The notes beneath the pieces are model-generated. The model did not search any database. It was given only the letters and a program-made list of their open reading frames with translations, and was not told the DNA's origin. Shown here piece by piece: positions 1 through 30,614 of a DNA stretch of 64,000 bases; position 1 is the stretch's first letter; every line of letters begins with the position of its first letter. The stretch comes from an uncultured Clostridia bacterium. Lineage in GTDB: Bacteria; Bacillota; Clostridia; Christensenellales; DTU072. The DNA lies in assembly GCA_944331875.1 (NCBI GenBank), contig CALVJA010000011.1:417-64416 (forward strand), given 5' to 3'. Both the position numbers and the translations under genes were made by a program.

Positions 1-16
1 ATGGAGTTATGGTGTT

Positions 17-13506: not shown

Positions 13507-14292
13507 ATGACAAACGTCGGGATCACCGTATTGGGGTTTACGATAATATTTTTGGCGACCACTTTGGGCGCCGCTATGGTGTTTTTGTTCAGGAAAGAAA
13601 TATCCCCGAAACTTAACACTGCGATTTTGGGATTTGCCGCAGGCGTGATGATAGCGGCAAGTATTTGGTCTTTGCTGCTTCCTTCGCTCGAGGGAGCGGC
13701 GGATTGGGGAAATCTCGCGTTTATCCCCGCGCTTGTAGGATTTTTGGCGGGCGGCTTGTTCATGGTCGTGTTGGACAAGTTGATCCCGCATCTGCATAAA
13801 TCCGGCATCGACGAGGGACTCAGAAATAACTTCAAGAAAACGACCAAACTGTTCATGGCGGTCACCATACACAATATACCCGAAGGGCTTGCCGTGGGAT
13901 TCGCTTTCGGCGGCGCTTTTGCCGACGGATCTACGGCGGCGTTCATGGGCGCGTTGGGGCTCGCGATAGGGATGTCGATACAGAACTTCCCCGAGGGCGC
14001 CGCGGTCGCGCTTCCCATGCGCTCGGTCACCGGGAGCAAGCTGAAAGCCTTCCTCTACGGTACGGGGACCGGCGTTGTGGAACCGATATTCGCGGTGGTA
14101 GGTTATTTCCTCGCCGCGTCTTTGACGGCGGCGCAGCCGTGGTTCATGGCGTTTGCGGCGGGGCTTATGATTTTCGTAGTCGCCGAGGACCTTATCCCCG
14201 ACGCGCATATCGAGGAAAATTCGCACCTCGGTACTTGGGGCGTTATGACAGGATTTGCGTTGATGATGGTGCTCGAAGTTGCGTTAAGTTGA
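13507..14292 (+). CDS. ZIP family divalent metal transporter (ZupT/GufA)
   Basis: LGFAAGVM, HNIPEGLAVG, QNFPEGAAVALP and EDLIP motifs; RBS AGGAG before ATG 13507. Confidence 0.92.
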   Translation: MTNVGITVLGFTIIFLATTLGAAMVFLFRKEISPKLNTAILGFAAGVMIAASIWSLLLPSLEGAADWGNLAFIPALVGFLAGGLFMVVLDKLIPHLHKSGIDEGLRNNFKKTTKLFMAVTIHNIPEGLAVGFAFGGAFADGSTAAFMGALGLAIGMSIQNFPEGAAVALPMRSVTGSKLKAFLYGTGTGVVEPIFAVVGYFLAASLTAAQPWFMAFAAGLMIFVVAEDLIPDAHIEENSHLGTWGVMTGFALMMVLEVALS

Positions 14293-14422
14293 TTTCTTTG
14301 CCGAAAAAGATGTTTAAAAATTGCTTTGAAAGGAACTTATAAGCAAAGTAGTGAAAAAGAGTGCATTCGACCGAATGCGCTTTTTTCACAAGGTGAGATA
14401 TAATTTCGGCAAAGAAATCAAC
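14288..14422 (+). repeat. ~135-bp MITE/REP-like element with terminal inverted repeats, copy 1
   Basis: GTTGATTTCTTTGCCGAAA (14288-14306) / TTTCGGCAAAGAAATCAAC (14404-14422) with an internal hairpin. Confidence 0.85.
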
Positions 14423-14997
14423 ACCACCGCTTTGCGCCTCTTTTCCGCCGTATCGCACGAAATTACTTAAAGCCTTTAATATCACCCCGTTTTGGAGACC
14501 AAAACGGGGCGCGGACGGCGCATAGTCCACTATAGCGCCGCCCGCGTTTCGTGCGATACGACAAAAAATAGTCTGCAAATCGGCGCTACGTATGCTTATC
14601 GTGGCGACAAAGTACACAGTGAACTGTTTTCTTCTTTCATGCAAAACACAAGTACAAGCAAACTGCTGTTCATGGCTAAAGCAAATCGGTGCCGAACACT
14701 CCATTCAAAGAAAACACTAATATTGGCGAACTGCTGTTCATGGCTCCAAAGTAAAAAACGCAAAAGCCGATATTACGCCTACAGCCGTAGATTTTCGGGT
14801 GATATAATTCGACAAAAGAATATTAGGAAGTCCCGTGTCGGTGAAGCGGAAATTTTAGCGTTTTGCGGCTGGAGATTTTTCGTTAATGCGAAGAAAACTT
14901 CCGACGTTAATACCCGGAGGGTCTTAACTAGGAAGTTTTCAAAGCAGTAGCGGAAAAGATACGCTGCAAAGCGTTAAAATTTCCGCTGAGCCGACAC
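14423..14997 (+). repeat. Mosaic intergenic palindromic repeat block
   Basis: Shares TTTGGAGACCAAA, AAATCGG..TATGCT..TCGTGGCGACAA..TACACAGTG, CTGCTGTTCAT and TATTACGCCTACAGCCGTAGATTTTCGGGTGAT modules with 16730-16975 and/or 30014-30360. Confidence 0.85.
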
Positions 14998-15010
14998 AAA
15001 AAGCCGATTT

Positions 15011-15091
15011 ATTTCACAACGCGCCCGTTACGGCTTGTTTACCTACCCTCGGGCGCGTTATTTCACAATTCCGCTTGCGGAATTATTTCAC
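15011..15091. repeat. ATTTCAC-punctuated hairpin array, copy 1
   Basis: ATTTCAC at 15011, 15060 and 15085, each pair separated by an inverted repeat. Confidence 0.8.
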
Positions 15092-15130
15092 TTTTTTTTG
15101 GCACCGCTTTGCCGCCACAGAAAACAAAAA

Positions 15131-15160
15131 TTGACATTATATGTGTTATCCGGTTATAAT
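15131..15160 (+). promoter_or_regulatory. Sigma-A promoter
   Basis: TTGACA-18-TATAAT upstream of the RBS/ATG at 15212. Confidence 0.8.
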
Positions 15161-15211
15161 AGTTATGATTTAACGGGCGGAAACGCAGATGACTCCGTTC
15201 GGAGGGTGGCA

Positions 15212-16612
15212 ATGGCATCGGGACATTGGGTTATATTGAAGCGGTTGAATACCGGATATGCAGAGTGGGGCTTGAAAGAGGGCTCATTGGGCTATGTGTC
15301 GGGCATTCAATGGAATGTTACCAAGTTGTGGGTCAGTTTTTACGGAGAAAAATTATGGGACGCAATATACGGCGGGTATACGGATGAAGTCTTAGTGAAG
15401 GTAGATAAAGCCGATCTGGAAATACTATCGCGGGATGCGGTCGAATATGGGCAGTATTCGGATCAAATAAAAAAGCTGGAAGCCGAATCGGAAATCCCCT
15501 GGCGGGAGAGCGGCGGCTGGGTAATATTGAAGCGTTTAAGAGCGGAATACGCGGAAAAAGGCGTAAAAAAGGGCGCGTTGGGAACATTGGTATCTTATGA
15601 ACATAACCAAAATCATTTCAAGGTGAGGTTCTACGGCGATAAATGCCAAAACGCAGAGGGGGACTCGGTTACTTCCGTTACGAAATTAGAGGTATTCGAC
15701 GAGGATGTTGAGAAAATATTTCCGGATTCTCCCGCCGCCCGGCCTTACACCGAAAGGATACGGGAGCTGGAACATGAATTCGAGAATTGGCGGATCAATA
15801 GATACGAATGGGTAAAATTGACGCGCTCGAGACCGGAGTACGCCGCAGAGGGTGTCAAAGAGGGCGCTATCGGAATAGTTAAGGAAGGTTGCTATGACGG
15901 AACTTTTGCCTCCGTGTTGTTTTTAGAAGACATGACCCGGGACGAAGACGGCGCTTTCTTTACGGAGTTCAAGAAGCTTGACGTCAAGTCGGCGGATCTG
16001 AAAATAATATCGCCTGAGTTCTGTCCCGGTCCCGACGCGGAAAAAGTCATGAGGTCGGACGAGGAATTCAAAAATAGCGGTATTGAGGAATATGACTGGG
16101 TGAAGGTTCTTCGCACAAGAGAAGAATATGCCGAAAAAGGCGTCAAAAAAGGCGACTTCGGTTATGTGACATTTGCATTGCCCGAGGATCCGACCGCACA
16201 TGTGAAATTTTTCGGAGAAAGGCGTTTAGACCCCGGTAACGGATGGGTGCGGGATGACTTCTATATCAACATATATAAGGAAGATTTGAAAAAAGTGCCG
16301 CGTGACCCCGATCGTACCGATCCCGATACGGAAGAAGCGCTCAGGATCGAAGAACGAGTCCGTAACATGGAGCCTGTACAAAATGATTTGGTGGAAGTTA
16401 TACGCTTAAGACCAGAATATTCGGAACACAATGTGAAAATAGGCAGCCGGGGAATGATTGAATTTACGTCGGATAGATACGCTACCGCGTGGGTGGTGAT
16501 AGACGCCGAACGACATTATGACGAGGCGCTCGGCAAATATTATTGGGATGACTACGATGACCTAAATATATATCTCGATGATTTGAGGAAAATTGATTTC
16601 TTTGCCGAATGA
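15212..16612 (+). CDS. Hypothetical protein with five tandem ~90-100 aa repeats (DUF4926-like)
   Basis: Five copies of WVxLxRxRxEYAExGVKxGxxGxV; RBS GGAGGG before ATG 15212. Confidence 0.7.
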   Translation: MASGHWVILKRLNTGYAEWGLKEGSLGYVSGIQWNVTKLWVSFYGEKLWDAIYGGYTDEVLVKVDKADLEILSRDAVEYGQYSDQIKKLEAESEIPWRESGGWVILKRLRAEYAEKGVKKGALGTLVSYEHNQNHFKVRFYGDKCQNAEGDSVTSVTKLEVFDEDVEKIFPDSPAARPYTERIRELEHEFENWRINRYEWVKLTRSRPEYAAEGVKEGAIGIVKEGCYDGTFASVLFLEDMTRDEDGAFFTEFKKLDVKSADLKIISPEFCPGPDAEKVMRSDEEFKNSGIEEYDWVKVLRTREEYAEKGVKKGDFGYVTFALPEDPTAHVKFFGERRLDPGNGWVRDDFYINIYKEDLKKVPRDPDRTDPDTEEALRIEERVRNMEPVQNDLVEVIRLRPEYSEHNVKIGSRGMIEFTSDRYATAWVVIDAERHYDEALGKYYWDDYDDLNIYLDDLRKIDFFAE

Positions 16613-16728
16613 AAAATTAATAAATTGCTTTGGATGGAACTTATAAGCCAAGTAGTGAAAAAGGGTTCATTCGTTTGAATGAACTTTTTTTCATAAGGTG
16701 AGACCTGATTCGGCAAAGAAATCAATTT
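16590..16728 (+). repeat. MITE/REP-like element, copy 2
   Basis: 21-bp inverted repeats AAATTGATTTCTTTGCCGAAT / ATTCGGCAAAGAAATCAATTT; interior homologous to copy 1. Confidence 0.85.
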
Positions 16729-16990
16729 ACCACCGCTTTACCGTGTCTTTCGGGCTCTTTTGTGCGAAATCTCCGACCCCTGTTTGGAGACCAAATAGGG
16801 GCGGCTCGGTCGAGTATGGTATACACTTCCCTCGCCGTTTCGCACAAAATAGCTCCGAAATCCACAGCAAATCGGTGCCGAGTATGCTTATCGTGGCGAC
16901 AAAATACACAGTGGACTGTGTTCTCCTTTCATGGAAAACACTAGTATAAGCGAGCTGCTGTTCATAGCTTAAAAGAATCGGTGCTATACA
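16729..16990 (+). repeat. Mosaic intergenic repeat block
   Basis: Collinear with 14423-14700. Confidence 0.8.
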
Positions 16991-17423
16991 CGCTCTACAT
17001 TGCGACAAGATACACAGTATACCAAACAGCTCTATAATGGAAAACACTATTATGGGCGAAAAGGAAAACAAACTTTAAACTGCCAAGCCATGTAATCGGA
17101 GGGGGGTTACGTTGACACTTCACCCCCGGCGATTAAATGCTCTGCTAACGCTCCGCGCGCCTCCCCCATTAAAATGGCTTGGGGATATGCTGTTAAAGGA
17201 ATAATATGCTTTGTGTATTACGGGAAAGGGAAAAGCTATGTGCGAAACCGAAGTTATCCACATATTCATCCACTAAACACTAAAAAAGACTTTCGATTCA
17301 AGGCACAACAAACAGCAAACACAAAAGCGCTACTACCATATAAAGCAAAGAACGACCATGTCCCTATACTTTCATATGGGGCGGGCGGGTGGGACATTAA
17401 TCTAAAGACCGCATACATACAAA

Positions 17424-17895
17424 CACCGCGCTCGCGCGGTGACTCGCCGAAAGAAATTCAACCAAGCAATAAAGGAATTTCTTTCGGCGAAAAAGGCGCC
17501 GGGAAGCGTAAGATTGGGGCACATCGTCGATGTAATGTAAATTTTATTAGTGAAGTGTTGCGTTATAAGTCAATACTTCGCTAAAAACATTTAAGTGCCA
17601 CAAGCCAAAAGCTTCCGACGGCGCCGTGGCAAGGACAGCGCGTATAGCATACGCGCCGACGCTGCCCCCGTTTGGTCTCCAAAGCGGGGGTCGTAGATTT
17701 CATACAAAGCCATAAAGATTATCTTGCTTGTATTAGTGTTTTCCCTTACATAGGTGTTTGGCGGCAGATTGCCGTAGATTTGCGAGCTATTTTCCGCAAA
17801 ACGGGAGGGAAGTGTATAGCATACTCGACCGATCCGCCTCCCACGGAGGTCGTAGATTTTGCGGAAAAGAGCCGCAAAGATGCGGCAAGATGTCG
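17424..17895. repeat. Mosaic intergenic repeat block including a 130-nt imperfect palindrome
   Basis: Matches 10948-11004 (inverted), 11261-11330 (direct) and 16730-16880 (inverted); palindrome at 17495-17625. Confidence 0.75.
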
Positions 17896-18034
17896 GGAAT
17901 TGATTTCTTTGCCGAATCAGGTCTCACCTTATGAAAAAAAGCGCATTCGGTCGAATGCACTTTTTCTCATCACTTGGCTTATTAGTTCCTTCCAAACTTC
18001 TAATTTACATCTTTTCGGCAAAGAAATCAATTCC
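17896..18034 (-). repeat. MITE/REP-like element, copy 3 (inverted)
   Basis: 21-bp inverted repeats GGAATTGATTTCTTTGCCGAA / TTCGGCAAAGAAATCAATTCC; interior is the reverse complement of copies 1 and 2. Confidence 0.85.
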
Positions 18035-18830: not shown

Positions 18831-18967
18831 TTGCCCCGATATTATGCTACAAACGTAAATTAGGTTAATTATTGGCGAGATCATCATTTTTGCGTTCTTT
18901 TCATCATTTTTCGATGCTTTGAGATGTCCCGAAATAAGGACAAGCGAATTTTACGTTTCCCTCGGGC

Positions 18968-18996
18968 TTGACTTTCGGTTATGTCGGTGATATATT
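18968..18996 (+). promoter_or_regulatory. Sigma-A promoter of the phage-like cluster
   Basis: TTGACT-17-TATATT with extended -10 TG. Confidence 0.75.
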
Positions 18997-19003
18997 TGAA
19001 ATG

Positions 19004-19017
19004 CGAACAAATGTTCG
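19004..19017. promoter_or_regulatory. LexA (SOS/Cheo) box
   Basis: CGAACAAATGTTCG matches the Firmicute consensus CGAAC-RNRY-GTTCG; located 7 nt downstream of the -10. Confidence 0.85.
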
Positions 19018-19049
19018 TAAATTGAACGCGACATACAGGAGGAAAACGG

Positions 19050-19535
19050 ATGCTCTCCGCCAAAACGGCAGAAATTTTATTGACGGTCTATCCCGAACTG
19101 AACGATCTGAAAAGGAGATATTTGTCCAAAGCGAAAAGATGCCTGAGTTTTGAATACAACTCGTCGGGGATAGACGCGGCGACGGTATTCGCGGAATTTT
19201 TCGCCGCGGCGGAAACGTATCGAAACCTAAAGCTGTTCGGTGACGCAATGAGCGCGGCGCTCGGCATTTTGTCGCCCGAGGAGAGGGCGGCGGTAAAAAG
19301 TTTTTATATGCTCGGCGAATCCGCCATGGCGGGAGCGAAGCGGTTCGGCATCGAAAAAACTACGTTCAGATCCGCAAAAAGGCGCGCTGTCAGAAAGTTA
19401 GGCGCATATATCGAGGTACTGGGGTTTGACGAAAAGCGGATATTGGAGTGCTTCGACTCGGAATACGCGTTCGTTGACGCCGCCGAGGAAGTGGAAGCAA
19501 GGTATGTAGCGGCGGCGCGGTTCAAAAGGCGATGA
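19050..19535 (+). CDS. RinA/ArpU-like (sigma-70 region 4 type HTH) late-gene regulator
   Basis: C-terminal half LSPEERAAVKSFY..GES....AKRFGIEKTTFRSAKRRAVRKL; RBS AGGAGG; position directly before terS. Confidence 0.65.
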   Translation: MLSAKTAEILLTVYPELNDLKRRYLSKAKRCLSFEYNSSGIDAATVFAEFFAAAETYRNLKLFGDAMSAALGILSPEERAAVKSFYMLGESAMAGAKRFGIEKTTFRSAKRRAVRKLGAYIEVLGFDEKRILECFDSEYAFVDAAEEVEARYVAAARFKRR

Positions 19536-19559
19536 AGCCGCCCGCGGGCGGTTTTTTTT
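19535..19559 (+). terminator. Intrinsic terminator between regulator and terS
   Basis: GCCGCC-cgcg-GGCGGT followed by a T run. Confidence 0.75.
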
Positions 19560-19576: not shown

Positions 19577-19882
19577 ATGCGATCGAGATCGATACGGAAA
19601 ACGGACAGGGAGAAACTTCTGAGCGGGCTCATAAAACGCGCGGAGGGGTTGGAAGCGGAGGAGCGCGTCATCGAATACGTCGTCGACGAGGACGGCAACA
19701 GACGCGCCGTAAAGGAAAAAACGCAATATAAATATTATCCGCCCGACGTTTCCGCGGCAAAGGTGTGTCTGGAGCTGGAAAAGGGGAACGCGAACGCGTT
19801 TTCGGGGCTCAGCGACGAGGACCTAGATCGGGAAAAAATAAGGCTCATGGAGGAACTCAAAAGAATAAACGGCGGCTCATGA
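19577..19882 (+). CDS. Putative terminase small subunit
   Basis: LIKRAEGLEAEERVIEY...KYYPPDVSAA..L pattern typical of small terminases; upstream of terL. Confidence 0.65.
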   Translation: MRSRSIRKTDREKLLSGLIKRAEGLEAEERVIEYVVDEDGNRRAVKEKTQYKYYPPDVSAAKVCLELEKGNANAFSGLSDEDLDREKIRLMEELKRINGGS

Positions 19883-20632
19883 ACGTTTCCCGTCGTCGTA
19901 AGGTTCGCGGGATCTTCCCGCGCCTCGGGAGCGGAACAGCAGCACGACAACGGCTATTGCCGGGACGGCAAGTCCCACGATTATGATTATTTTAAGCTCG
20001 TTGTCGTCCAGTGCGTCCATCACGCTCCCGTCCGAGGGAGCGGCAGTATCATCCGCGGGAGCCGAGACGTCCTCGGACGGCGGATCTTCGGGGACGAAGG
20101 GCTCGATGTCGGGGGAAGGCATCGTCGTCCTGTCGGCGCGGATATAGCCGTAGGAGTTTTCGTATTTGACGTAGTACCATGTCAGAGTTTCCGTGGGATA
20201 TACCCCCAAAAACGTTATCGAAGCGCCGACGGGGACCTCGGCGGCGCTATCGGAGGTAACGTCGGGAGAAACTTTCAGGTTTATCGCGGTGAACTCCGAA
20301 AAATCGGCGGAAACGCCAATCTCGCGCGAAGTGCCCGCCGCGGTAGTGTGGTAGCCGACGGCGGAAACGGTGTTTTTGTCTACCTTTCCCGAAACGCCGT
20401 TGAAAGTGACGTAATAGAAATTTTCGTCCAGATTGTTGATCCTGGCGTAGTAGGTGTCGGGAAGCATGAACAGCCTGACCCCGTCGCCGCTTAAAAGCCA
20501 CACGTCGCCGTCCGCTACGATATGCGGCGTATCGGCGGCAAACGCGGCGAAAGAGCTCTCGGGAACAAGAGCAAATATCATCGCGGCGGCGAGTATCATA
20601 ACGGCGGCGAGAGCGGCGCGTACGACTTTCAT
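19877..20632 (-). CDS. Exported SH3b-domain protein with C-terminal membrane anchor
   Basis: Signal peptide ending FAAFAA; FYYVTFNGVSGKV and WYYVKYENSYGYI SH3b signatures; Pro/Asp-rich linker; TM helix with basic tail. Confidence 0.75.
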   Translation of the reverse strand: MKVVRAALAAVMILAAAMIFALVPESSFAAFAADTPHIVADGDVWLLSGDGVRLFMLPDTYYARINNLDENFYYVTFNGVSGKVDKNTVSAVGYHTTAAGTSREIGVSADFSEFTAINLKVSPDVTSDSAAEVPVGASITFLGVYPTETLTWYYVKYENSYGYIRADRTTMPSPDIEPFVPEDPPSEDVSAPADDTAAPSDGSVMDALDDNELKIIIIVGLAVPAIAVVVLLFRSRGAGRSREPYDDGKRS

Positions 20633-20695
20633 ACAAAACAGTATATCCCGTATACGCCGCGCTAAAACCCGTAATTTGTTAAAAAGGAGATTATT

Positions 20696-21037
20696 ATGTT
20701 GATTACCCGCGACCCGCACGATATCGCCCTGAGGCTCAAGGAGATAGATCCCTCATACGAACTTCATTTCAACAATAGGACGTCCCGCTTCGAACTGAAG
20801 GACGGGAGCGGAGCAACTTTGATCGTTTTCCCGTATGACCGCATGGACGAAAGGATGGTACGCCACGCGCGCCGCACCAGGGCGGAGAGACTGGCGGAGA
20901 TAATACGCGAGATAGACCTTGCAAACGAACGCGCCGAAAAAAGGGCGTTAAGGATCCGCGAAAACGCGGCGGAGGACGGACTAAGGGAGGCAGCGGACAG
21001 ATTTTATGCCGACAGAAAAAGAAAGGGAGCTGGTTGA
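20696..21037 (+). CDS. Phage-associated hypothetical protein
   Basis: RBS AAGGAG; 113 aa; overlaps the terL start. Confidence 0.7.
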   Translation: MLITRDPHDIALRLKEIDPSYELHFNNRTSRFELKDGSGATLIVFPYDRMDERMVRHARRTRAERLAEIIREIDLANERAEKRALRIRENAAEDGLREAADRFYADRKRKGAG

Positions 21038-22439
21038 ACGGATACTCGGTATAGAGGCGGAACAGGCGAAACGGCGCGCCTCGAACAAACTTTTATATTA
21101 CAACGCGGGCGAAAAAAAGCATTTGAAACAGCTTGAGTTCCACAGAAGTATCGCGAGGAACCGCTGGGTATTCGGCGGCAACAGGTCCGGGAAAACCGAA
21201 TGCGGCGCGGCGGAGGCGGTGTGGATGTGCCGCGGCAACCACCCTTTCCGCAAAAACAGGCGCGACGTAAAAGGCTGGGCGGTCTCGGTGACGCGCGAGG
21301 TACAGCGCGACGTGGCGCAGGCGAAAGTGCTTTCATACCTTTCGCCCGAGTGGATAGAACGGGTGACGATGTCGGAGGGGACAAAGGAATTTCCCGAGGG
21401 CGGCGTAATCGACACGGTGTACATAAAAAACGTGTTCGGCGGGATAAGCTCGCTGACGTTCAAATCGTGTCAGCAGGGAAGGGAAAGTTTTCAGGGCGCG
21501 ACGCTCGATTTCGTGTGGTTCGACGAGGAGCCGCCCCGGGACATTTACGAAGAATGCCGTATGCGCGTGTTGGACAGAAGCGGCGATATATTCGGCACGA
21601 TGACGCCGCTGAAAGGGCTGACATGGGTGTACGACGAGATATATCTGAACGCTTCCTCGGACCCCGAGATATGGACGGAGACGATGGAGTGGGCGGATAA
21701 TCCGTACCTGAAGGAAGAGGAAGTTAAAAGGCTTTCCGCAGTGCTGTCGGCGGAGGAGCTCGAATCCAGGCGCTACGGCAGGTTCCGCGCGGATTCGGGA
21801 CTTGTGTATCCCGAATTCGACCCTTCGGTACACGTTATAGAGCCATTTGAGATACCGTTCGATTGGCAGTCGGCGATAAGCATCGACCCGGGACTCAAAA
21901 ATCCGCTGTCGTGTCATTTCTATTGCCAGGACTTCGACGGCACTATATACGTCGTCGCGGAGCACTACGAGGCGGGGCTCGACGTAAGATCGCACGCCGA
22001 AAAGATAGACGAGATAGCGACTAATCTCGACTGGCGGCGCCGCACGGACGGAAGGCTCGAAGCGCTCATCGACTCCGCCGCAAATCAAAGGACTTTAGCT
22101 TCCGCAAAGTCGGTGTCGGAACTGTTCTTCGAATACGGCATAGCGGTCAATACGAACGTCAACAAGGATATGTTCACGGGGATAAGCCGCGTGAGGCGCT
22201 TGTTCGCCGAGCGCCCGCCCGCGATATATATCTTCAATACCTGCACGAAAATGATAAAGGAACTGAAAAGCTATTGGTGGGGCGGCGGCGACGTTCCCGT
22301 CAAAAAAGACGATCACGCGATGGACGACCTGAGGTACTACGTCATGTCGCGCCCCGAAAACAGGGAACCGAAGCCGAAGCCAAACCGGTTCCAACTGCAC
22401 AAAACAAAATTGATGCGGTCATGCCGCGTCGGAAAATAG
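21006..22439 (+). CDS. terL: Terminase large subunit
   Basis: Walker A GGNRSGKT, Walker B VWFDEEP, motif III TMTP, nuclease IDPG and DDHAMDDLRY. Confidence 0.93.
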   Translation: MPTEKERELVERILGIEAEQAKRRASNKLLYYNAGEKKHLKQLEFHRSIARNRWVFGGNRSGKTECGAAEAVWMCRGNHPFRKNRRDVKGWAVSVTREVQRDVAQAKVLSYLSPEWIERVTMSEGTKEFPEGGVIDTVYIKNVFGGISSLTFKSCQQGRESFQGATLDFVWFDEEPPRDIYEECRMRVLDRSGDIFGTMTPLKGLTWVYDEIYLNASSDPEIWTETMEWADNPYLKEEEVKRLSAVLSAEELESRRYGRFRADSGLVYPEFDPSVHVIEPFEIPFDWQSAISIDPGLKNPLSCHFYCQDFDGTIYVVAEHYEAGLDVRSHAEKIDEIATNLDWRRRTDGRLEALIDSAANQRTLASAKSVSELFFEYGIAVNTNVNKDMFTGISRVRRLFAERPPAIYIFNTCTKMIKELKSYWWGGGDVPVKKDDHAMDDLRYYVMSRPENREPKPKPNRFQLHKTKLMRSCRVGK

Positions 22440-22447
22440 GAGGAAAC

Positions 22448-24271
22448 ATGTCACAAAAAGAGCTTGCGGCAGAGCTTAGAAGCGACTTCGAACGCCGCCG
22501 CGAACAACGAAGAGAGATCGAAGCGAAGTGGAACCTGAACATCGGATTCATGATGGGAAAACAGTACTCCGTAATAGACCCCCGCGGAGAGATCGTCGAA
22601 AATGCGGGAAGGTTCGGTTGGGAGGGGCGCGAGGTATATAACCATATCGCGCCTTTGATCGAAACGCGGCTTGCCAAATTCGCGAGGATAAACTGTGCGG
22701 TGAACGTGCGCCCCGCGGGCGCGGAGGACGCGGACGTAAACGCGGCGCGCCTGTCCGGAAAGATAATTGACGCCGCGATGCGCGACAACTCGTTCGCGAC
22801 GCTTGCGGGAAAGGCAAACTTTTGGTCGGAGCTCACCGGCACCGCGTTTTTCAAGGTGGTATGGGACGCGGACGAAGGGGAGTCCGGCGGCGTAAAGATA
22901 GCGGTCTGCCCGCCCGAGGAGATCTTCCCCGACGATATATCCGCCGCGGACGTGGGATCTTTGAGGAGCCTCATCCACGCGAAAATTTATCCCGTCGAGG
23001 CGGTATACGAGCTGTGGGGAAAGAAAGTGGAAAGCGAAGACGTGGATATGTACGATTTTACGGGCGCCGCCCGCCGCGTTCCCGAGTCCTCCGAGGAAAA
23101 AGAGGGGTACGTTCTGGTCATCGAAAGATACGAAGCGCCCTCCCAAAGCGCGCCCGAGGGGCGCCTCGTCATAGCGGCAAAAGACACCGTTTTGTATTCG
23201 GGACCGCTGCCGTACATAAACGGCGCGGGCGGCAAAAGGACGTTTCCGTTCATACGCCAGACCGCGCTGAACGTGCCGGGATCGTTCTACGGCATGAGCC
23301 TTATCGAACGCCTGATACCCGTCCAGCGCGCATATAACGCAGTCAAAAACAGAAAGCACGAGTACATGGCGCGACTGGCTGGCGGTGTGTACGCGGTGGA
23401 GGACGGCAGCGTCGACGCGGAATCGCTCGAGGAGGAAGGGATGTACCCCGGGCGCGTCATCGTCTACAGACAGGGCGGCAGTCCGCCGGCTCTGATGGCT
23501 CCCGGGAGCGTGCCGAGCGAATTCCGCGACGAGGAGAACAGGCTTTTGGAGGAATTCAGGACTATATCCGGCGTGGCGGACGTGATAAACGTGTCGGGCG
23601 CGGAACTCAATTCCGTCAGCGGGTACGCGCTGTCGCTACTCTTGGAGCAGGAATATTCCAGAATGTCCGTGACGACCGAATCGATAAGAGCGGCGGTCAA
23701 AGAAGTGGCAAGGCATATCCTGAGGCTTTACCGCCAATTTGCCGACAAGAAACGCCTCGTCATGATCGGCGGCGACTCGGGCGAAGTGGAGGCGGTCAGT
23801 TTCATGGGCTCGGATCTCGGCGGCGACGACGTCGTGACGGAGACCGATTCCGAGATGGTGGAATCCCCCGCGACCCGTAAAAACATGGTGCTGGAGCTTC
23901 TGAGATACGGGCTTCTCGGCGACGAAAACGGGAGGATCTCCAACAGAAACCGCGCGAAAATTATCGAAATGCTCGGTTTCGGCAATTGGGAAGCGGCGAA
24001 AAGCTCAGACGAGATACATATCAAAAAGGCGGCGCGGGAAAATCTCGAATTTTCGCGCGGCAAGTCGGCCGAGGTCGGAGAACTTGACGACCATCAGCTG
24101 CATATAGACGAACACCGCGCTTTTTATGCAGGCGGCGACGTGTCCGACAAAGCGAGAAAACTTGCCGAGGAACACGTCAGGAAACACAAGGTGATGATGC
24201 GGCTCGAATACGAGGCGGCAAACGTCGTTTCGGGCGCTTACACAACAAATAACACGGCAACGGAGGAATAA
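22448..24271 (+). CDS. Portal protein (P22/podovirus-like, 607 aa)
   Basis: Follows terL; YNHIAPLIE, GTAFFKVVWD, FYGMSLIERLIPVQRAYN and DDHQLHIDEH motifs; RBS AGGAGG. Confidence 0.85.
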   Translation: MSQKELAAELRSDFERRREQRREIEAKWNLNIGFMMGKQYSVIDPRGEIVENAGRFGWEGREVYNHIAPLIETRLAKFARINCAVNVRPAGAEDADVNAARLSGKIIDAAMRDNSFATLAGKANFWSELTGTAFFKVVWDADEGESGGVKIAVCPPEEIFPDDISAADVGSLRSLIHAKIYPVEAVYELWGKKVESEDVDMYDFTGAARRVPESSEEKEGYVLVIERYEAPSQSAPEGRLVIAAKDTVLYSGPLPYINGAGGKRTFPFIRQTALNVPGSFYGMSLIERLIPVQRAYNAVKNRKHEYMARLAGGVYAVEDGSVDAESLEEEGMYPGRVIVYRQGGSPPALMAPGSVPSEFRDEENRLLEEFRTISGVADVINVSGAELNSVSGYALSLLLEQEYSRMSVTTESIRAAVKEVARHILRLYRQFADKKRLVMIGGDSGEVEAVSFMGSDLGGDDVVTETDSEMVESPATRKNMVLELLRYGLLGDENGRISNRNRAKIIEMLGFGNWEAAKSSDEIHIKKAARENLEFSRGKSAEVGELDDHQLHIDEHRAFYAGGDVSDKARKLAEEHVRKHKVMMRLEYEAANVVSGAYTTNNTATEE

Positions 24272-24273
24272 CG

Positions 24274-24855
24274 ATGGAAAACGATTTGAACGTGGAACAA
24301 ACCGCTTTAAGTCCCGCCGGCACTCAGGGCGACAAGACCGAGACGGCTTCCTACGGGAAATTCAAGTCACCGGACGAGCTCTTGAACGCCTATAACGCGT
24401 TGGAGGCGGAATTTACCAGACGCTCCCAGCGCATAAAGGAGTTGGAAGGCAAGCTCGAATCGGGACGTATCGAGGAGGAATGGACGGAAAAACTGAAGAC
24501 TTTACACGAAAAGTACCCCGTATCCAAGGGACTTTCCAAGGAGATAGGCGAGTATCTGAAAGCGAACGAGTCCATGATAGGAGAAAAGGATTGCCTTGAA
24601 AAAGCGCTGTTGAACGTGCTCGCCGAACGCTCTTCGTTTTCTCCGTCCCCCGAAAAGGCGCGGAACATACCCCCCGACGGCGCGGACGCGCAAACGGTTT
24701 CGAACGAGGAAAAGGACGCGGGCAGGCGCGTTCCGCCCCCGAAGCTCCCCGTATCCGTCGGTATGCCTCCGGCAAACCCCTTCCGTAGACCATCAACGGT
24801 CGCGGAAGCGGGAAAGCTTGCCGCAGAACATTTCAAAAAATTAAAAGGAGAGTAA
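24274..24855 (+). CDS. Putative capsid scaffolding protein
   Basis: GKFKSPDELLNAYNALEAEFTRRSQ coiled coil and Pro-rich C-terminus; lies between portal and capsid genes. Confidence 0.7.
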   Translation: MENDLNVEQTALSPAGTQGDKTETASYGKFKSPDELLNAYNALEAEFTRRSQRIKELEGKLESGRIEEEWTEKLKTLHEKYPVSKGLSKEIGEYLKANESMIGEKDCLEKALLNVLAERSSFSPSPEKARNIPPDGADAQTVSNEEKDAGRRVPPPKLPVSVGMPPANPFRRPSTVAEAGKLAAEHFKKLKGE

Positions 24856-24858
24856 ATT

Positions 24859-26094
24859 ATGTTATCCGTCAGCTCAATAGACGCGGTACTCAAATCCTAT
24901 TATCTGGACGCGATATGCGCGTCGCTGAATACGGGAGTGAGTCCGCTTTACTCGGCGATAGAAAAATCCGCGGCGGAAATAACCGGAAAGGACGCCGTCG
25001 TGCCCACTATGTACGGCGTGTGCGGGGGACTCGGGTCCACCGACGAAACGGGAGAACTACCCGATTCCGGCGAATGCCTGCGCACCGGGTTTACCGTCCC
25101 GCTCAAAAACATCTACGGCGTCATCGATATTTCCGATAAGGCGCTCCGCGCCTCGCGCGACAACGCTTCGGGGATCGTGGGGCTTCTGAATACCGAAATA
25201 AAGGCGATGGTGCGTTCGGCACAGTTCAACCTTAACAGAATGCTTTGGATGGACGGCACAGGGCTTCTTGCGACCGTGAAGACTTTCACCAACGGCGCGA
25301 TGCCCACCGCCACCGTGGACGACACCCGTTTCCTCGCCGAAGGCATGAAAGTGGACTTTTATCGTTCGGGCGCGGCGGTCATGACCGGAGTCAGGATCGC
25401 AGACGTCAACCACGAGACCAAAACGCTCACGTTCCCTTACGGAATAATGAACACGAATTCGCTGCAGGCGGGCGACCTCATCTACATTCAGAAGTCCAAG
25501 GGGAACGAAGTCAACGGCATTCCTTACGTTTTCGATACGGGCAACACCTATTTCGGCGTAAACAAAGCCACAAATCCCGGCATAAAACCCGTCGAAAAAT
25601 CGCTCGGCGACGAGCTTACCGTGGACGCGATGCAGGAATTTTTCGATACCGCTTCCCTTCGCGCGGGCGTACAGCCCGATATGATAGTGTGCTCGATGAA
25701 AACGCGGCGCCAGTATCTGAAGCAGCTCGAACTGAACAGAAGGAACATCGACTATCTGAACCTCGACGGCGGCTTCAAAACGCTTGCGTTCAACGGCATA
25801 CCCGTCGTGGGAGAGCGTTTCGCGCCGGACGGCGAAATGTACTTTTTGAACACGCCCACTCTGAAGCTCGTGCAGCTGAACGATTGGGAATGGCTGGAAG
25901 GGGAGAACGGTTCCATATTGAATCAGCTCGACAGAAAAGCGGTATACACCGCTACCCTTGTAAAATACGCGAACTTCGTCGCGGCATACCCCAGGGGTCA
26001 GGCGAGGCTGAAAGGCATAGAGGATCCCTCCTCGAGCACGACTGCGTCCGGCGGCACCGACTCCGGCTCCGGTGCGGACGACGCCACCGGCTGA
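24859..26094 (+). CDS. Major capsid protein (HK97 fold)
   Basis: 411 aa; ETGELP, LNRMLWMDGTG and GGFKTLAFNGIPVV..RFAPDGEMYFLN capsid-like motifs; position. Confidence 0.85.
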   Translation: MLSVSSIDAVLKSYYLDAICASLNTGVSPLYSAIEKSAAEITGKDAVVPTMYGVCGGLGSTDETGELPDSGECLRTGFTVPLKNIYGVIDISDKALRASRDNASGIVGLLNTEIKAMVRSAQFNLNRMLWMDGTGLLATVKTFTNGAMPTATVDDTRFLAEGMKVDFYRSGAAVMTGVRIADVNHETKTLTFPYGIMNTNSLQAGDLIYIQKSKGNEVNGIPYVFDTGNTYFGVNKATNPGIKPVEKSLGDELTVDAMQEFFDTASLRAGVQPDMIVCSMKTRRQYLKQLELNRRNIDYLNLDGGFKTLAFNGIPVVGERFAPDGEMYFLNTPTLKLVQLNDWEWLEGENGSILNQLDRKAVYTATLVKYANFVAAYPRGQARLKGIEDPSSSTTASGGTDSGSGADDATG

Positions 26095-26151: not shown

Positions 26152-26688
26152 ATGACTTTATCCGATGTGATCGAAAGAGCGGGCAACATCATAGGGCTCG
26201 AGGGGGAACCGACGTCCTATCCGACAAGCGCGTACAACAAACTGAAAGACTCCGCAGTGACCGTATATACCGAACTCATAACCGAACACGTCCCGCTCAG
26301 GACGAAGGAAACGGTGTCGGTATCGAACGGAAAGATCTTCTACGAGGATCTCGGAAAAAAGGTAAGGGAGATACTGAAGATATCGACCGGCGCGGGAAGG
26401 TTGAAATTTACGGTCTATCCGGAGTATATTGAAACCGAATGCGGATACTCGGGCGACGCGGAGATCGAATACCTTTATTATTACGTTCCGTGCCTTCCGA
26501 CGGACGAGATGCTCCTGCCGCCGCAATACACGGAGTACATACTTGCCGTAGGCACCGCGGCGGAGTATTTTTACCGCTCGTCCCTGATCGACGAGGCGAT
26601 GTTTTTCAGAAACCGCTTCGAGTCCGCGGTAAACAACCTGAGCCGCACCAAACGGGTGTTCGATCTGCCGTACAGGAGACTGATATGA
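26152..26688 (+). CDS. Putative head-tail adaptor protein
   Basis: 178 aa after the capsid gene; MTLSDVIERA start and LPPQYTEYILAVGTAA helix typical of podoviral adaptors. Confidence 0.65.
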   Translation: MTLSDVIERAGNIIGLEGEPTSYPTSAYNKLKDSAVTVYTELITEHVPLRTKETVSVSNGKIFYEDLGKKVREILKISTGAGRLKFTVYPEYIETECGYSGDAEIEYLYYYVPCLPTDEMLLPPQYTEYILAVGTAAEYFYRSSLIDEAMFFRNRFESAVNNLSRTKRVFDLPYRRLI

Positions 26689-28208
26689 GATACTTCAGTA
26701 GCTTCAGAGACGAACGCCTTCCCGCAACAGGTCAATTGAAGTGCAGTATCGGTGCCTTTGCATCCCTCGACGCCAGACGAGATATTGTCCCGAAATCATT
26801 AAGTTTATGTAGCTATGGATACAATATCCGCTTTACGGGAGGGATACTCCGCAATTCGTACGGCGTAAAGCTCGCAAGCTGGACTGCGGGAGACGATACC
26901 GCGATCACGCTGCCGACTCTCCAATACGAAGGCGAAAACCTTAAACGCCTCCATGTCATACGACGTACGACCCAAAGCGGAGAGGAGGCGGAGGAGCTTT
27001 TGGCGTACTCCGCGGAAGGGAAATTCTACGTCTGTCCGCTTACGGAGACCTCGAGCGCTTTTACGTATTTTCCCGGTATCACCGACGTCACGGAGGATAT
27101 AACGTTCATAAACTACTTTACCGGCGGAGCGGATACCGCTTTGATCTACACCGAGAACGGAGCGTATAAATATGACGGGAATTTTGTTAAAGTCGACGGC
27201 GCGCCGGGGCTCGTCGGGGCGTGTATGCACTATGACAGAGTGTTCGGGATAAAACCGGGCGCGCGCGACACGATAGCGTTTTCGGCGCTTCTCGACCCGT
27301 TCGAATTCTCCGTTGAAAGCGGCGGAGGCGAGATATCGCTTATGGATGAGGGCGGTAAGATATTGAAACTTATATCGATCCGCAACTCCGTATACATTTT
27401 CCGCGAATACGCCGTATACAGGATGACCGCCTACGTCGATCCCACGGAATACACTATCTCCAGGGTATTTTCCGCGGACAAGCCCATTCGGCCGGGATCC
27501 GTTGCGTCCGACGGTGACAGGGTTTTTTTCGTGTCGGGCGAAGACATATTCGTTCTAACATCCTCGGGAGCGGATAGGTCGTACGAGGAGATATCCCCGC
27601 TTATTTCGGACGCGTCCCACGCGGTGGGGCACATATTCGACGGGACGTATTATCTCGCGGCGTGCATCGCTAAAGAGGGGGACGAGTCCGTTGGCGACGA
27701 GTCCGTCGCGGGAGCGATAACCCAAAACAACGCGCTGTTCGGATTCGGATTCGCGCGCGGCACTCTGGATATCGTGCGCGGGACGGATATACGCTGGTTC
27801 GCGGGCGTCGTGAACGACGATATCAGCGCGCTTTTGGTGGTGTTCGGTGGCACGAGGAGCGCGTTCCCGGGGATGCTTACGGACGACGGAAAGCTGTTCG
27901 GACTGCCGCTTAAAAAGCTGTGGCGCTCCCATTTTGTCAGGCTCGGAGACCCCGAGGCGCTTAAAACGGTGAGGCGTATATATCTGGATACCGTATCGGA
28001 CGTCAACATCACGCTGGAATCGGAGACGGGCGACAAACTAGGTTACATCGCGGGCGGCTCGAAAATGGCAGTCGCGATACCGTCATTCGTTATCGGCGAC
28101 CGCCTGAAGATGAGCCTGGAATCGGTTTTTCCCGATTTCAGGATAGGCGAAGCCGTCGTTTATATAAATCAATACGGGAGGTATCTGGGAGATGCAGGAA
28201 ATACTTGA
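26685..28208 (+). CDS. Putative tail nozzle/hub (beta-propeller, P22 gp10/T7 gp12-like)
   Basis: 507-aa beta-rich protein; HYDRVFG, IAFSALLDP.F, VYIFREYAVY blades and C-terminal W.S..LGDPEALKTVRRI; ATGA overlap with the adaptor. Confidence 0.65.
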   Translation: MRYFSSFRDERLPATGQLKCSIGAFASLDARRDIVPKSLSLCSYGYNIRFTGGILRNSYGVKLASWTAGDDTAITLPTLQYEGENLKRLHVIRRTTQSGEEAEELLAYSAEGKFYVCPLTETSSAFTYFPGITDVTEDITFINYFTGGADTALIYTENGAYKYDGNFVKVDGAPGLVGACMHYDRVFGIKPGARDTIAFSALLDPFEFSVESGGGEISLMDEGGKILKLISIRNSVYIFREYAVYRMTAYVDPTEYTISRVFSADKPIRPGSVASDGDRVFFVSGEDIFVLTSSGADRSYEEISPLISDASHAVGHIFDGTYYLAACIAKEGDESVGDESVAGAITQNNALFGFGFARGTLDIVRGTDIRWFAGVVNDDISALLVVFGGTRSAFPGMLTDDGKLFGLPLKKLWRSHFVRLGDPEALKTVRRIYLDTVSDVNITLESETGDKLGYIAGGSKMAVAIPSFVIGDRLKMSLESVFPDFRIGEAVVYINQYGRYLGDAGNT

Positions 28209-28296
28209 AAAGCTGGATGAGATATTGTTGAGGCTCGTCGTACTTGACAAAAAAGTAAGCGCTTCATCCTCCGGCGGAGGAGGTTCGAATGAGTGA
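28192..28296 (+). CDS. 34-aa coiled-coil micro-protein (not in the ORF track)
   Basis: GGGAG RBS; MQEILEKLDEILLRLVVLDKKVSASSSGGGGSNE*; bridges the nozzle gene and the next gene with overlaps at both ends. Confidence 0.5.
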   Translation: MQEILEKLDEILLRLVVLDKKVSASSSGGGGSNE

Positions 28297-29362
28297 TTTC
28301 TCGCCTTCCGAGCATATGGCGGAAGTGGAACGAAAAAAAGACGAAGCTCTCGAAAAGATCAAAGAAGTGTACAGAAAACTCGGTTTGTATTCGGATAATG
28401 ACGAATCCGGGGAGAACGCAGAGGAAACGGGCCCTGTCATGGGTGCTAGCCGTGAGCTTATAGAGGAACTGAAAGATCTGGAGGAGCAATACCGATTGGC
28501 TTCGGCGGGACTGGAGCCCGCGGAGGAAGTCGAGATCCCCGCTACTCTCGGGGAAGAGCCGCTTACGTATGTACATGCCACGGACGAGGAGCTTGCCGAG
28601 ACCGCGAGAAACGAACTCAGACCGCAGTACGTCGCGAACAGAAACGAGGCTAAGGAAAATTATTCCTCGGCGGAAGCTAAGGCGGCGGAGGAAACCGCGG
28701 CGATTTCCGCGGCCGAAGCGGGATCGATAGCGGAGCTCAACGCAAATCGGCGTGACGAGGAGAACGCGCTTACGGAATCGATGGTGATACAGGGGCTTGT
28801 GAACAGCACCATCTTCGACCAGGGCAGCGACTCCGTCCGCAGAAAATACGCCGCCGAAAGCGCGCGGATCAGCACCGAATACGATTTAAAGTACTCGGCT
28901 ATCCGCTCCGAACTCGAACTCAAACAGCTCGAGTACGAGAACGCTCTCAGCGAATACGACTTAAGTTACGCCGCAGAGCTTCGATCGCGCGTGTCGGAAC
29001 TGAAGCGCGAAGAGGAAGCGCGCCTGAAAGAGATCAACGAGTACAACCGCGAGCTCGCCGAACGCGAAGCGGAATATCAAAAGGAGCGGCAGGAAGCGCT
29101 CGAGGCGATATATTTAAGCCGCAGCGAGGCTATCCTGAACGCGGCGAAAGCGGAACAGGAATACGAGCGGGAATACGGCGTTTCCTACGAAAAACAGGCA
29201 GAATACGTCAGGCGTTACACCCTGGCGAAAAACTTCTATTCGCGTTACACCGCGTCCGAAGCGGGCAGCATGATAGAAGAATCGGAAGGGTATCTTAGAC
29301 TTCTCCTCGGCGACGAGATGTTCACGGAACTCGCGCGTTGGAACTTCACCGAAAGGGGGTAG
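28289..29362 (+). CDS. Acidic coiled-coil protein (possible internal virion/ejection protein)
   Basis: 357 aa, E/A/R-rich and helical; QGLVNSTI motif; RBS GGAGG. Confidence 0.55.
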   Translation: MSDFSPSEHMAEVERKKDEALEKIKEVYRKLGLYSDNDESGENAEETGPVMGASRELIEELKDLEEQYRLASAGLEPAEEVEIPATLGEEPLTYVHATDEELAETARNELRPQYVANRNEAKENYSSAEAKAAEETAAISAAEAGSIAELNANRRDEENALTESMVIQGLVNSTIFDQGSDSVRRKYAAESARISTEYDLKYSAIRSELELKQLEYENALSEYDLSYAAELRSRVSELKREEEARLKEINEYNRELAEREAEYQKERQEALEAIYLSRSEAILNAAKAEQEYEREYGVSYEKQAEYVRRYTLAKNFYSRYTASEAGSMIEESEGYLRLLLGDEMFTELARWNFTERG

Positions 29363-29915: not shown

Positions 29916-30013
29916 TCCAGGGCACTTCGGAAACAATGAAAAGTCATTGTTTCCGAAGCATATTCGACTTGTTCTCATCGGTATTGACTTCCTAATATGC
30001 TTATATTTTATTA

Positions 30014-30360
30014 GGGCGCGGACGGCGCATAGTTTCGCTATAGCGCCGCCCGCGTATTTCGTGCGATATGACGTTAGTTTGCGAACGCAAACCTGGCGCG
30101 AATGCGCTAAAATAGTCTGCAAATCGGCGCCAAGTATGCTGTTCGTGGCGACAAGATACACAGTGGGCTATATTCTCCTATAAGGGAAAACACTAACAAA
30201 AGCGAACTGCTGTTCATTGCTCTAAAGTAAAAAATAACAAGAGCCTATATTACGCCTACAGCCGTAGATTTTCGGGTGATTTTTCGCAAACACAAAGGCG
30301 GCATACGACGTATGTCGCCTTTGTGTTTGCGGAAAAGGAGCGAAAAGATACGGAAATTAA
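30014..30360 (+). repeat. Mosaic intergenic repeat block
   Basis: Direct homology to 14506-14803 and inverted homology to 11030-11207. Confidence 0.85.
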
Positions 30361-30464
30361 ATTTTATAGTCAATATATTGCTTTTCGATCTAATGACCGC
30401 AACAAAATCCGCGGGGGATAGATTGAGTGGATAAGATGTATTATTTGAATGTGCATATCTCTAA

Positions 30465-30614
30465 AAAATCTAGCGGATTTTATTTCACAAATTGAAACTT
30501 TGCCCGCGAAGTTTCAATTTATTTCGCAATTCCGCTTGCGGAATTATTTCACAATTTTGCGCAGCAAAATTATTTCACATTGACTTGAAGCCGATGATTC
30601 GGCTTCAAGTCAAT
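30465..30614. repeat. ATTTCAC-punctuated hairpin array, copy 2
   Basis: ATTTC(A/G)C at 30482, 30521, 30546 and 30572, each followed by an inverted repeat. Confidence 0.85.

Follow-up and report, generated by a model that had tools for sequence, protein, structure and literature searches.

Introduction

In Faecalibacterium prausnitzii, a podovirus-like operon of 10.5 kb and ten open reading frames (ORFs), FpGTA I, has been described as a gene transfer agent (GTA) locus giving ~40-nm particles with ~9-kb DNA, with tail-fibre and lysis genes encoded at a second locus (PMC12946183, Nat Commun 2026). The same gut virome study reports GTA-like packaging as the commonest form of host-DNA packaging and finds it in Christensenellaceae as well (PMC12946183). 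Since the words "regulator" and "promoter" are absent from its main text, no regulator of FpGTA is named there (PMC12946183). Here, we analysed a 64,000-nt stretch (the window) of the genome of an uncultured Clostridia bacterium (Christensenellales; DTU072), with focus on a ~10.4-kb, 11-gene head and nozzle cluster of short-tailed-phage type, which opens with a LexA box and the gene for a 161-amino acid (aa) regulator (REG). Rather than to a prophage, this region probably belongs, as its control head, to a particle cluster of the FpGTA type that derives from a phage and is owned by the host, in which LexA would control REG and REG would control the structural genes. Because the LexA site sits on the promoter of REG at the cluster head, production of GTA-like particles is probably SOS-driven, i.e., switched on by DNA damage. 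Our literature search found no paper on a LexA box at the regulator of such a cluster in Clostridia.

Likened by description, and known here from its genes alone, the cluster shares with FpGTA the layout of a ~10.5-kb chromosomal operon that encodes what may be the terminase's small subunit (TerS), lacking a DNA-binding domain, the large terminase subunit (TerL), portal, scaffold, capsid and short-tail proteins, as well as an occurrence in every, or almost every, species of a genus and gut Clostridia as hosts. In contrast to FpGTA, it has a LexA operator and a sigma-region-4 regulator at its head, and a gene for an SH3 membrane protein (sh3m) is embedded in it on the opposite strand. Moreover, no second locus with tail-fibre, holin and endolysin genes turned up, no genome-wide search having been aimed at one.

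By analogy, FpGTA is the closest known system for the cluster and the LexA-to-SigN circuit of pBS32 the closest for its control. A sigma-like positive factor ahead of terminase genes is also found in PBSX of Bacillus subtilis, which is defective, packages host DNA, is induced by DNA damage and encodes the sigma-like Xpf just before its terminase genes; unlike the present cluster, PBSX is long-tailed and has its own Xre repressor, and we know of no LexA-box control of xpf. On pBS32, a cryptic phage-like plasmid of B. subtilis, a LexA-repressed SigA promoter drives the sigma factor SigN (PMC6751061, mBio 2019); DNA damage derepresses sigN, and the same circuit is proposed here for REG. However, SigN is described as a proven, plasmid-borne sigma factor with its own feedback promoter (PMC6751061), whereas only region 4 is recognisable in REG and no feedback promoter is evident for it.

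Small regulators encoded directly upstream of terS, as REG would be if the gene after it is terS, are known from phages as the Ltr superfamily of late activators, i.e., RinA, ArpU, LtrA (Sigma70_r4), LtrB (DUF1492) and LtrC (PMC3753634, NAR 2013). The LtrA class is defined by a limited similarity to sigma region 4 (PMC3753634), as is seen in REG, and phage proteins of the DUF1492 and sigma70_r4 kinds are among its structural neighbours. Nevertheless, phage ltr genes are described as standing under cI and activating a promoter between ltr and terS (PMC3753634), whereas the REG gene would stand under host LexA. Direct repression of an element promoter by host LexA via SOS boxes, and not by a phage CI, has been described for GIL01 of Bacillus thuringiensis (PMC4551915, NAR 2015), although GIL01 is a replicating temperate tectivirus that needs the co-factor gp7 and the present element is chromosomal and inherited; a gp7-like gene was not seen in it, no search having been aimed at one. 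Finally, LexA takes an indirect route via CckA in RcGTA, the activator of which, GafA, is sigma-like in part (PMC6363796).

Results

The REG gene (19050-19535, plus strand; ATG start) is preceded by a sigma-A-type promoter read in the sequence, with a -35 element TTGACT (18968-18973, plus strand) and, after a 17-nt spacer, a -10 element TATATT (18991-18996, plus strand), which is extended by a TG at 18988-18989. The promoter was also retrieved in a consensus promoter scan (10/12 matches, TG present). Beginning 8 nt past the -10 and lying over the expected +1 is the sequence CGAACAAATGTTCG (19004-19017, no strand assigned), a perfect CGAAC-N4-GTTCG palindrome. This is the consensus of the Firmicutes-type LexA operator, or Cheo box. 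A ribosome-binding site AGGAGG (19037-19042, plus strand) then precedes the REG ATG.

Because the 1.96-Mb genome contains eight perfect CGAAC-N4-GTTCG boxes vs. the ~2 expected from base composition, the perfect 14-mer by itself is not beyond chance. Boxes with at most one mismatch number 12 in the window vs. 5.6 expected, a count that 3 of 100 shuffles reach. A dispersed repeat carries the GAAC-N4-GTTC-like word CGAACTGCTGTTCA and inflates such one-mismatch counts. What places the box beyond chance is that CGAACAAATGTTCG is the only perfect box of the genome with an all-A/T spacer, that it is positioned on a promoter, and that it is conserved in orthologous loci. Specifically, exactly one NGAAC-N4-GTTCN occurs upstream of REG, 33-161 nt before its start, in 24/24 distinct orthologous loci (with L006 left out as the same place as L007, and L008 being the window itself), and these 24 boxes are the sole occurrences of the pattern within the 76,061 bases of the 24 loci. 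A promoter of the form TTGAC(T/A), ~17 nt, TATA(T/C/A)T nearly always stands directly before the box. The weakest REG matches, in G080 and G050 (L049 and L050, also boxed), likewise have a box behind a sigma-A-type promoter, which brings the count to 26/26 loci. Since the operator core GAACA..TGTTC remained invariant in 24/24 loci while REG diverged (to identities with the window as low as 22-51%), we accept the operator as real from this comparison, and consider it a credible site for host LexA on a sigma-A promoter.

A single LexA is encoded in the genome (contig C3, 37926-38522; 184 bits, above the cut-off, with S24 peptidase and LexA_DNA_bind domains), and near-identical boxes of the CGAAC-N4-GTTTG form were found upstream of lexA itself (CGAACTTTTGTTTG) and upstream of the gene for a Y-family DNA polymerase (CGAACAAATGTTTG). 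A survey of the genome that allowed up to one mismatch and required an A/T-rich spacer placed three boxes in promoter-like, A/T-rich non-coding positions, i.e., those of lexA, the Y-family polymerase and REG. An initial annotation of the window had described the promoter and box ahead of REG and proposed host LexA as the protein that reads the box; both elements are present in the sequence, and the proposal is supported by the encoded LexA, its near-identical boxes and the conservation among orthologous loci.

Some 27-42 nt further upstream of the -35 (18926-18952, plus strand) lies an inverted repeat, GTCC-N8-GGAC, followed by ATTTT. Judged by eye and without a formal count, a GTCC/GTAC...GGAC/GTAC arrangement with an A/T tract recurs upstream of the -35 in many orthologous loci, and it may represent an insulating mini-terminator or a second operator.

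Because of its matches in Pfam, NCBIfam, PHROGs, PDB folds and BFVD, REG is regarded as a small region-4-type DNA-binding protein. Its family is tiny and lineage-specific. Pfam returned Sigma70_r4_2 alone (E 2.9e-4; 20.8 bits vs. a cut-off of 25.7), NCBIfam at E<=0.1 only the region-4 ends of sigma-70 and extracytoplasmic function (ECF) sigma models, and PHROGs a sigma-factor family (E 6e-4) next to one family of unknown function (E 0.008). In the AlphaFold2 model (predicted local distance difference test score, pLDDT, 83.8), the N-terminal half consists of two long helices. The best PDB matches of this model were the -35-binding region-4 domains of ECF sigma factors, with template-modelling (TM) scores by target of 0.81-0.87 (e.g., 3hug: TM by target 0.87, root-mean-square deviation (rmsd) 1.2 A over 70 columns, E 0.011), whereas full-length ECF sigma factors fit poorly (rmsd 12-25 A). 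In BFVD, its neighbours were small phage proteins annotated as sigma70 region 4, DUF1492, ECF sigma or transcriptional activator (TM by query <=0.64). No Sigma70_r2 (region-2) match was obtained in Pfam or NCBIfam.

Relatives of REG formed 39 clusters in an exhaustive profile search of 1.84 billion representatives, and a word-index search matched four proteins. None were found among viral contigs or metagenome contigs, nothing under E 0.1 among deposited phages, and nothing at E<=1 among deposited plasmids other than one Thermus sigma factor (E 0.8). REG is the first gene of the cluster in every locus. The helix-turn-helix regulator that had been noticed ahead of the packaging genes is thus upheld by its region-4 fold and its position at the cluster head. 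Its description as RinA/ArpU-like is not, since no RinA or ArpU model appeared in the NCBIfam scan at E<=0.1. In kind, REG comes closest to the LtrA (Sigma70_r4) late activators; by sequence, it has no RinA/ArpU membership, and it is not a complete sigma factor.

Immediately after REG, a hairpin GAAGCCGCC-CGCG-GGCGGTTTT followed by T8 and further T residues (19534-19559, plus strand) resembles an intrinsic terminator and ranks first in the list of a terminator scan; the next ATG, at 19577, lies 17 nt past the T-run. While this hairpin is present just as the initial annotation had it, its proposed function as a gate on the structural genes does not hold across the orthologous loci. A hairpin with T-run follows REG in only 4/24 of them, i.e., the window and L010, L011 and L012 (G075, G073 and G059), which form one sub-clade, whereas the REG stop overlaps or abuts the next start in 17/24 loci (gap of -26 to +3). 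In L009, the gap is 18 nt without a T-run; the survey script left L025 unresolved, and in L027 REG is cut by a stop. Because overlap or abutment prevails over the terminator in this way, a REG-o101 bicistron is the ancestral state, and the terminator is, as judged from this comparison, a lineage-specific local attenuator and not a conserved gate. The same overlap or abutment leaves no room for an Ltr-type promoter between REG and the next gene, and in the window the interval consists of the terminator and 17 nt.

The gene following REG, o101 (19577-19882, plus strand), encodes a 101-aa protein that is a possible small terminase subunit, a lead that stems from look-alikes of its structure in the Atlas (annotated as "terminase small subunit family", TM 0.71, and Sf6_terminase, TM 0.54). 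By sequence, o101 had no match in Pfam, PHROG, NCBIfam or PDB, and its orthologues (n=19) gave only scattered weak matches in Pfam. The gene is present in 18/18 larger loci, and in sister families it is placed between TerL and portal. Its arrangement with REG indicates that both are co-transcribed and, in most species, translationally coupled. The predicted REG-o101 complex scored 0.07 vs. a mark of 0.32.

Between o101 and the next structural gene, o113, the minus-strand gene sh3m (19877-20632) encodes a membrane protein with a signal or transmembrane segment, SH3-like domains (SH3_3 match of E 5e-4, under the cut-off) and a C-terminal transmembrane segment. Its start was put at the ATG at 20632, because the upstream extension contains stops in relatives. 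A stray insertion was considered as the origin of sh3m and rejected, since the gene is kept on the opposite strand in 18/18 larger loci and also in one sister family.

The 63 nt between sh3m and o113 (20633-20695, both strands) constitute a divergent control region and a candidate target of REG. On the minus strand, TATACT (20640-20645) is located 7 nt before the sh3m ATG and GTTTTA (20663-20668) another 17 nt upstream of it, while the plus strand reads TAAAAC-N-TTTGTTAAAAA-GGAG-ATG ahead of o113; this arrangement is kept in most of the 18 loci compared. Since a second locus under REG control might share these elements, the genome was searched for the composite TAAAAC...TTTGT motif, which occurs solely at o113. 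A TATACT/TATAAT-like hexamer 5-15 nt before the sh3m ATG, without a ribosome-binding site, is kept from the genus to a sister family (L114, 5855-5890), and sh3m looks leaderless in this respect. Judging from these motifs, REG may act at the spacer on the plus strand, the minus strand or both, or read-through may reach the structural genes, and these are the possibilities that remain. Metatranscriptome contigs covering pieces of the cluster are unstranded and of low depth, with possible DNA carry-over, and are blind to transcript starts, strands and levels. Among these RNA contigs, from which no inference was drawn, one of X2 starts at 19000 and one of X3 (19702-20626) ends in an adapter 6 nt short of the sh3m ATG.

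Downstream of the divergent region, all genes of the cluster are on the plus strand. The conserved 113-aa o113 (20696-21037) overlaps the start of TerL and is found after the capsid gene in sister families. TerL (21006-22439; Terminase_6N, E 4e-16; phrog_2, E 9e-30) is followed by the portal protein (22274-24271; P22_portal, E 7e-17; SU10_portal; phrog_156), the true start of which is probably near 22454. The 193-aa o193 (24274-24855) found no match in protein family scans and is a candidate scaffolding protein by its position between the portal and capsid genes. The major capsid protein (MCP; 24859-26094; phrog_14242, E 1.5e-39) has 1902 relatives at E<=1e-10 in a large protein collection, some of them with PF17236. 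Many come from contigs that are hundreds of kb long and bear the labels Clostridia, Christensenellales, Bacillota or Acidaminococcus, and relatives of 40-46% identity occur widely among long Bacillota contigs, whereas identity to deposited phages is just 23-27%.

The conserved 178-aa o178 (26152-26688), without a family or PDB sequence match, is a candidate head-to-tail adaptor given its position. The short-tail nozzle or hub protein of ~505 aa (26691-28208; phrog_3287), for which the ORF from 26439 is an over-extension, was recognised through its AlphaFold2 model (pLDDT 80.1), with Foldseek pointing to the phage Pa223 tail (E 1.3e-18), VP1 portal-tail, SU10 tail, P22 gp10 and T7 gp12 nozzle proteins. 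The last conserved gene, o357 (28289-29362), encodes a coiled-coil-rich DUF7934 protein (PF25588, E 2.6e-35) and is kept in the 14 larger loci that reach that far. Sequence-profile searches of the PDB with o101, o113, o178, o357 and o589 returned nothing meaningful, and an Rfam scan of 13.5-34 kb at E<=0.1 gave no match. Pfam, PHROG and NCBIfam scans of the interval that the host genes flank recognised no gene for an integrase, a repressor, replication or lysis.

REG is single-copy in 19/21 other species of the genus and is found in 26/81 genomes of the family, the window's own included. In G062, REG was not found but TerL is present at 65% identity, which brings the cluster to 20/21 species; G061 (96% complete) yielded no TerL with the window query. 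Collinearity of the 11 genes extends through the 18 larger loci, in each over the part that it covers, and TerL identity is 63-81%. The same three clades of the genus appear in a tree of RpoB (49 genomes; quick IQ-TREE, LG+G4) and in one of TerL, portal and MCP (15 rows); the window genome is missing from the former because its assembly, though rated 95.9% complete, contains no rpoB. All 11 genes have ratios of non-synonymous to synonymous substitution (dN/dS; Nei-Gojobori) of 0.04-0.29 in the pairs tried, although these ratios are rough because dS was saturated in all pairs. Values ranged from 0.10 to 0.19 for REG, from 0.06 to 0.18 for o101 and from 0.06 to 0.15 for sh3m, those of portal, nozzle and sh3m being derived from queries trimmed to the corrected starts.

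MCP was found in 21/301 genomes of a class-wide sample, including 2/2 and 6/6 genomes of two sister families. The latter six, of family f3 (including L115, L116, L119 and L123), are 0.8-1.0 Mb in size and rated 99-100% complete, and all have kept the cluster. The gene order in sister families is TerL, o101, portal, scaffold candidate, capsid, o113, o178, nozzle and o357. In G089, a sister-family genome, lexA-like genes are present at three separate places (150-159 bits).

The cluster is flanked by host genes, which are an M20 peptidase and ZupT on its left side and, on its right side from ~32.5 kb, a cytidylyltransferase-HD protein, an ECF transporter S component, TsaB, Mur ligases and Ddl, together with trigger factor, ClpX, Lon and the cell-division cluster. 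Upstream of REG, an identical set of four membrane/surface genes (F4, F3, F1 and F0) recurs in clades A and C of the genus as well as in two other genera, whereas in the window's clade the cluster adjoins ZupT and these four genes are kept as a block elsewhere, on contig C14. They were considered as part of the element and rejected, being kept as a separate block of membrane/surface proteins in this genome.

A dispersed non-coding repeat with small hairpins is present on both sides of the cluster (14279-15100, 16583-17060, 17640-18000 and 29980-30560); blastn with two of its units gave 528 high-scoring segment pairs over most contigs of the 1.96-Mb genome, and Rfam gave no match to it. A 525-aa ORF (15035-16612) consists of five 291-nt tandem repeats and has only weak DUF4926 and phrog_7871 matches; the closest relatives, L033 and L034, lack the 4.7-kb stretch that holds it (14.3-18.9 kb). 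Finally, a giant ORF of at least 3369 aa (2-10111) runs off the 5' end of the window, and a related open frame is situated on the same side in L006.

Discussion

In the circuit that we propose, host LexA would bind CGAACAAATGTTCG over the start of the strong sigma-A promoter in an undamaged cell and keep the REG-o101 transcript off. Upon DNA damage, RecA would become active and LexA would cleave itself, after which the promoter would fire and REG would be made together with o101, the possible small terminase. REG would in turn raise transcription of o113, TerL, portal, scaffold candidate, capsid, adaptor candidate, nozzle and o357, likely from a site in the conserved sh3m-o113 divergent control region, to which read-through from the LexA promoter may add, and particles packaging host DNA would be produced. 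In this species and three relatives, the terminator after REG would lower the flow into o101. The link between REG and the structural genes is the weak step of the model.

A number of observations weigh against this circuit. As to its LexA part, recA, located after a cinA-like gene, has no box in its 400 upstream bases, and the box nearest to it sits inside a radical-SAM gene; because just three promoter-placed boxes were found in the genome, the regulon is small and its motif rests on few sites. As to REG, the Pfam score is below the cut-off and the Foldseek E-values are all above 1e-3, and in G057 of a sister genus (L027/L046) an in-frame TAA leaves a product of 98 aa, with promoter, box and the rest of the cluster intact. 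As to its reach, no sigma-A promoter was found ahead of o113 in the consensus scan, and o101 and sh3m stand tail-to-tail without a terminator between them, because of which the structural genes could be expressed by plain read-through, without REG. As to the particles, no lysis or receptor-binding genes were found in the cluster. Finally, sister-family clusters showed no REG by tblastn and no box upstream, and lexA was not found in the two f3 genomes checked, nor in one genome of the other sister family. Since sister families thus keep the cluster without REG and box, and two f3 genomes do so without lexA, LexA and REG are not essential to the cluster as such. Together with the distribution, collinearity and selection described above, these sister families lacking the head lead us to regard the cluster, on comparative grounds, as an old, inherited and selected particle gene set to which the LexA/REG head is this family's addition.

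Alternatively, a single LexA-controlled operon could run by read-through from REG and o101, antisense through sh3m, into o113, TerL and onward, with REG serving not as an activator but as the DNA-binding partner of the small terminase (i.e., a split TerS) or in some other role. The overlap or abutment of REG and o101 in 17/24 loci, which indicates translational coupling, agrees with such an operon, as do the lack of a terminator between o101 and sh3m, the lack of a sigma-A promoter before o113, and the lack of a recognisable DNA-binding domain in o101, the TerS of FpGTA being described likewise (PMC12946183). Nevertheless, we consider it unlikely, since sister families have o101 without a detectable REG and their terminase therefore works without it, and since the structural neighbours of REG are sigma region-4 domains and small phage regulators instead of terminases. 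Moreover, the window has a strong terminator between REG and o101, and read-through would collide with sh3m transcription. REG could also be an activator that targets the sh3m promoter instead of the structural operon, in which case it would read GTTTTA and switch on a late SH3 membrane protein for release or a surface change, with antisense feedback into o101 and REG. While sigma region 4 is described as reading -35 elements (PMC3753634) and the minus strand has TATAAT or TATACT 6-15 nt before the ATG with the conserved, non-canonical GTTTTA at -35 distance (16-18 nt upstream), this proposal is drawn purely from sequence, and the sister family without REG retains the same arrangement, so that the sh3m promoter needs no REG there and the idea that sh3m depends on REG is weakened. 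It therefore appears rather improbable to us.

The initial annotation had instead seen an inducible, possibly defective prophage without a CI of its own, in which host LexA replaces the phage repressor, a RinA/ArpU-type late activator follows, and a terminator gates transcription from terS onward. The sequence features behind this view are real, Ltr-type activators are described upstream of terS in many Gram-positive phages (PMC3753634), and phage GIL01 uses host LexA directly (PMC4551915). However, the comparative data largely refute it and leave it highly improbable: the cluster is vertically inherited, being single and collinear in 20/21 species of the genus, co-diverging with RpoB and having all of its genes under selection, and the scans recognised neither an integrase or repressor gene nor one for replication or lysis in the interval flanked by host genes. 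In addition, the terminator is confined to 4/24 loci and no RinA/ArpU model matched.

We thus favour the LexA-to-REG control head on a host-owned particle cluster. More tentatively, and with rather less confidence in its full extent, we put it forward as possibly the first control circuit that can be read for the newly recognised class of short-tailed GTAs in gut Clostridia. In this fuller form, LexA would gate a fast-evolving, lineage-specific REG that is co-expressed with a small terminase, and REG would fire the particle genes via the divergent region shared with the leaderless sh3m, so that upon DNA damage the cell's own DNA would be packaged and released. LexA and REG would then have been added, in this family alone, to an older cluster that is run otherwise in other families, including those with 0.8-1.0-Mb genomes without lexA.

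If the circuit is real, it would provide a testable trigger, i.e., DNA damage, including that by antibiotics, oxidative stress or bile stress, for particles of uncultured Clostridia of the chicken and human gut, as well as a concrete promoter, operator and regulator for use in reporters. It would also present a domesticated virus cluster that has been rewired, in which the structural genes are kept across families and the control head, with its LexA box and REG, is specific to one.

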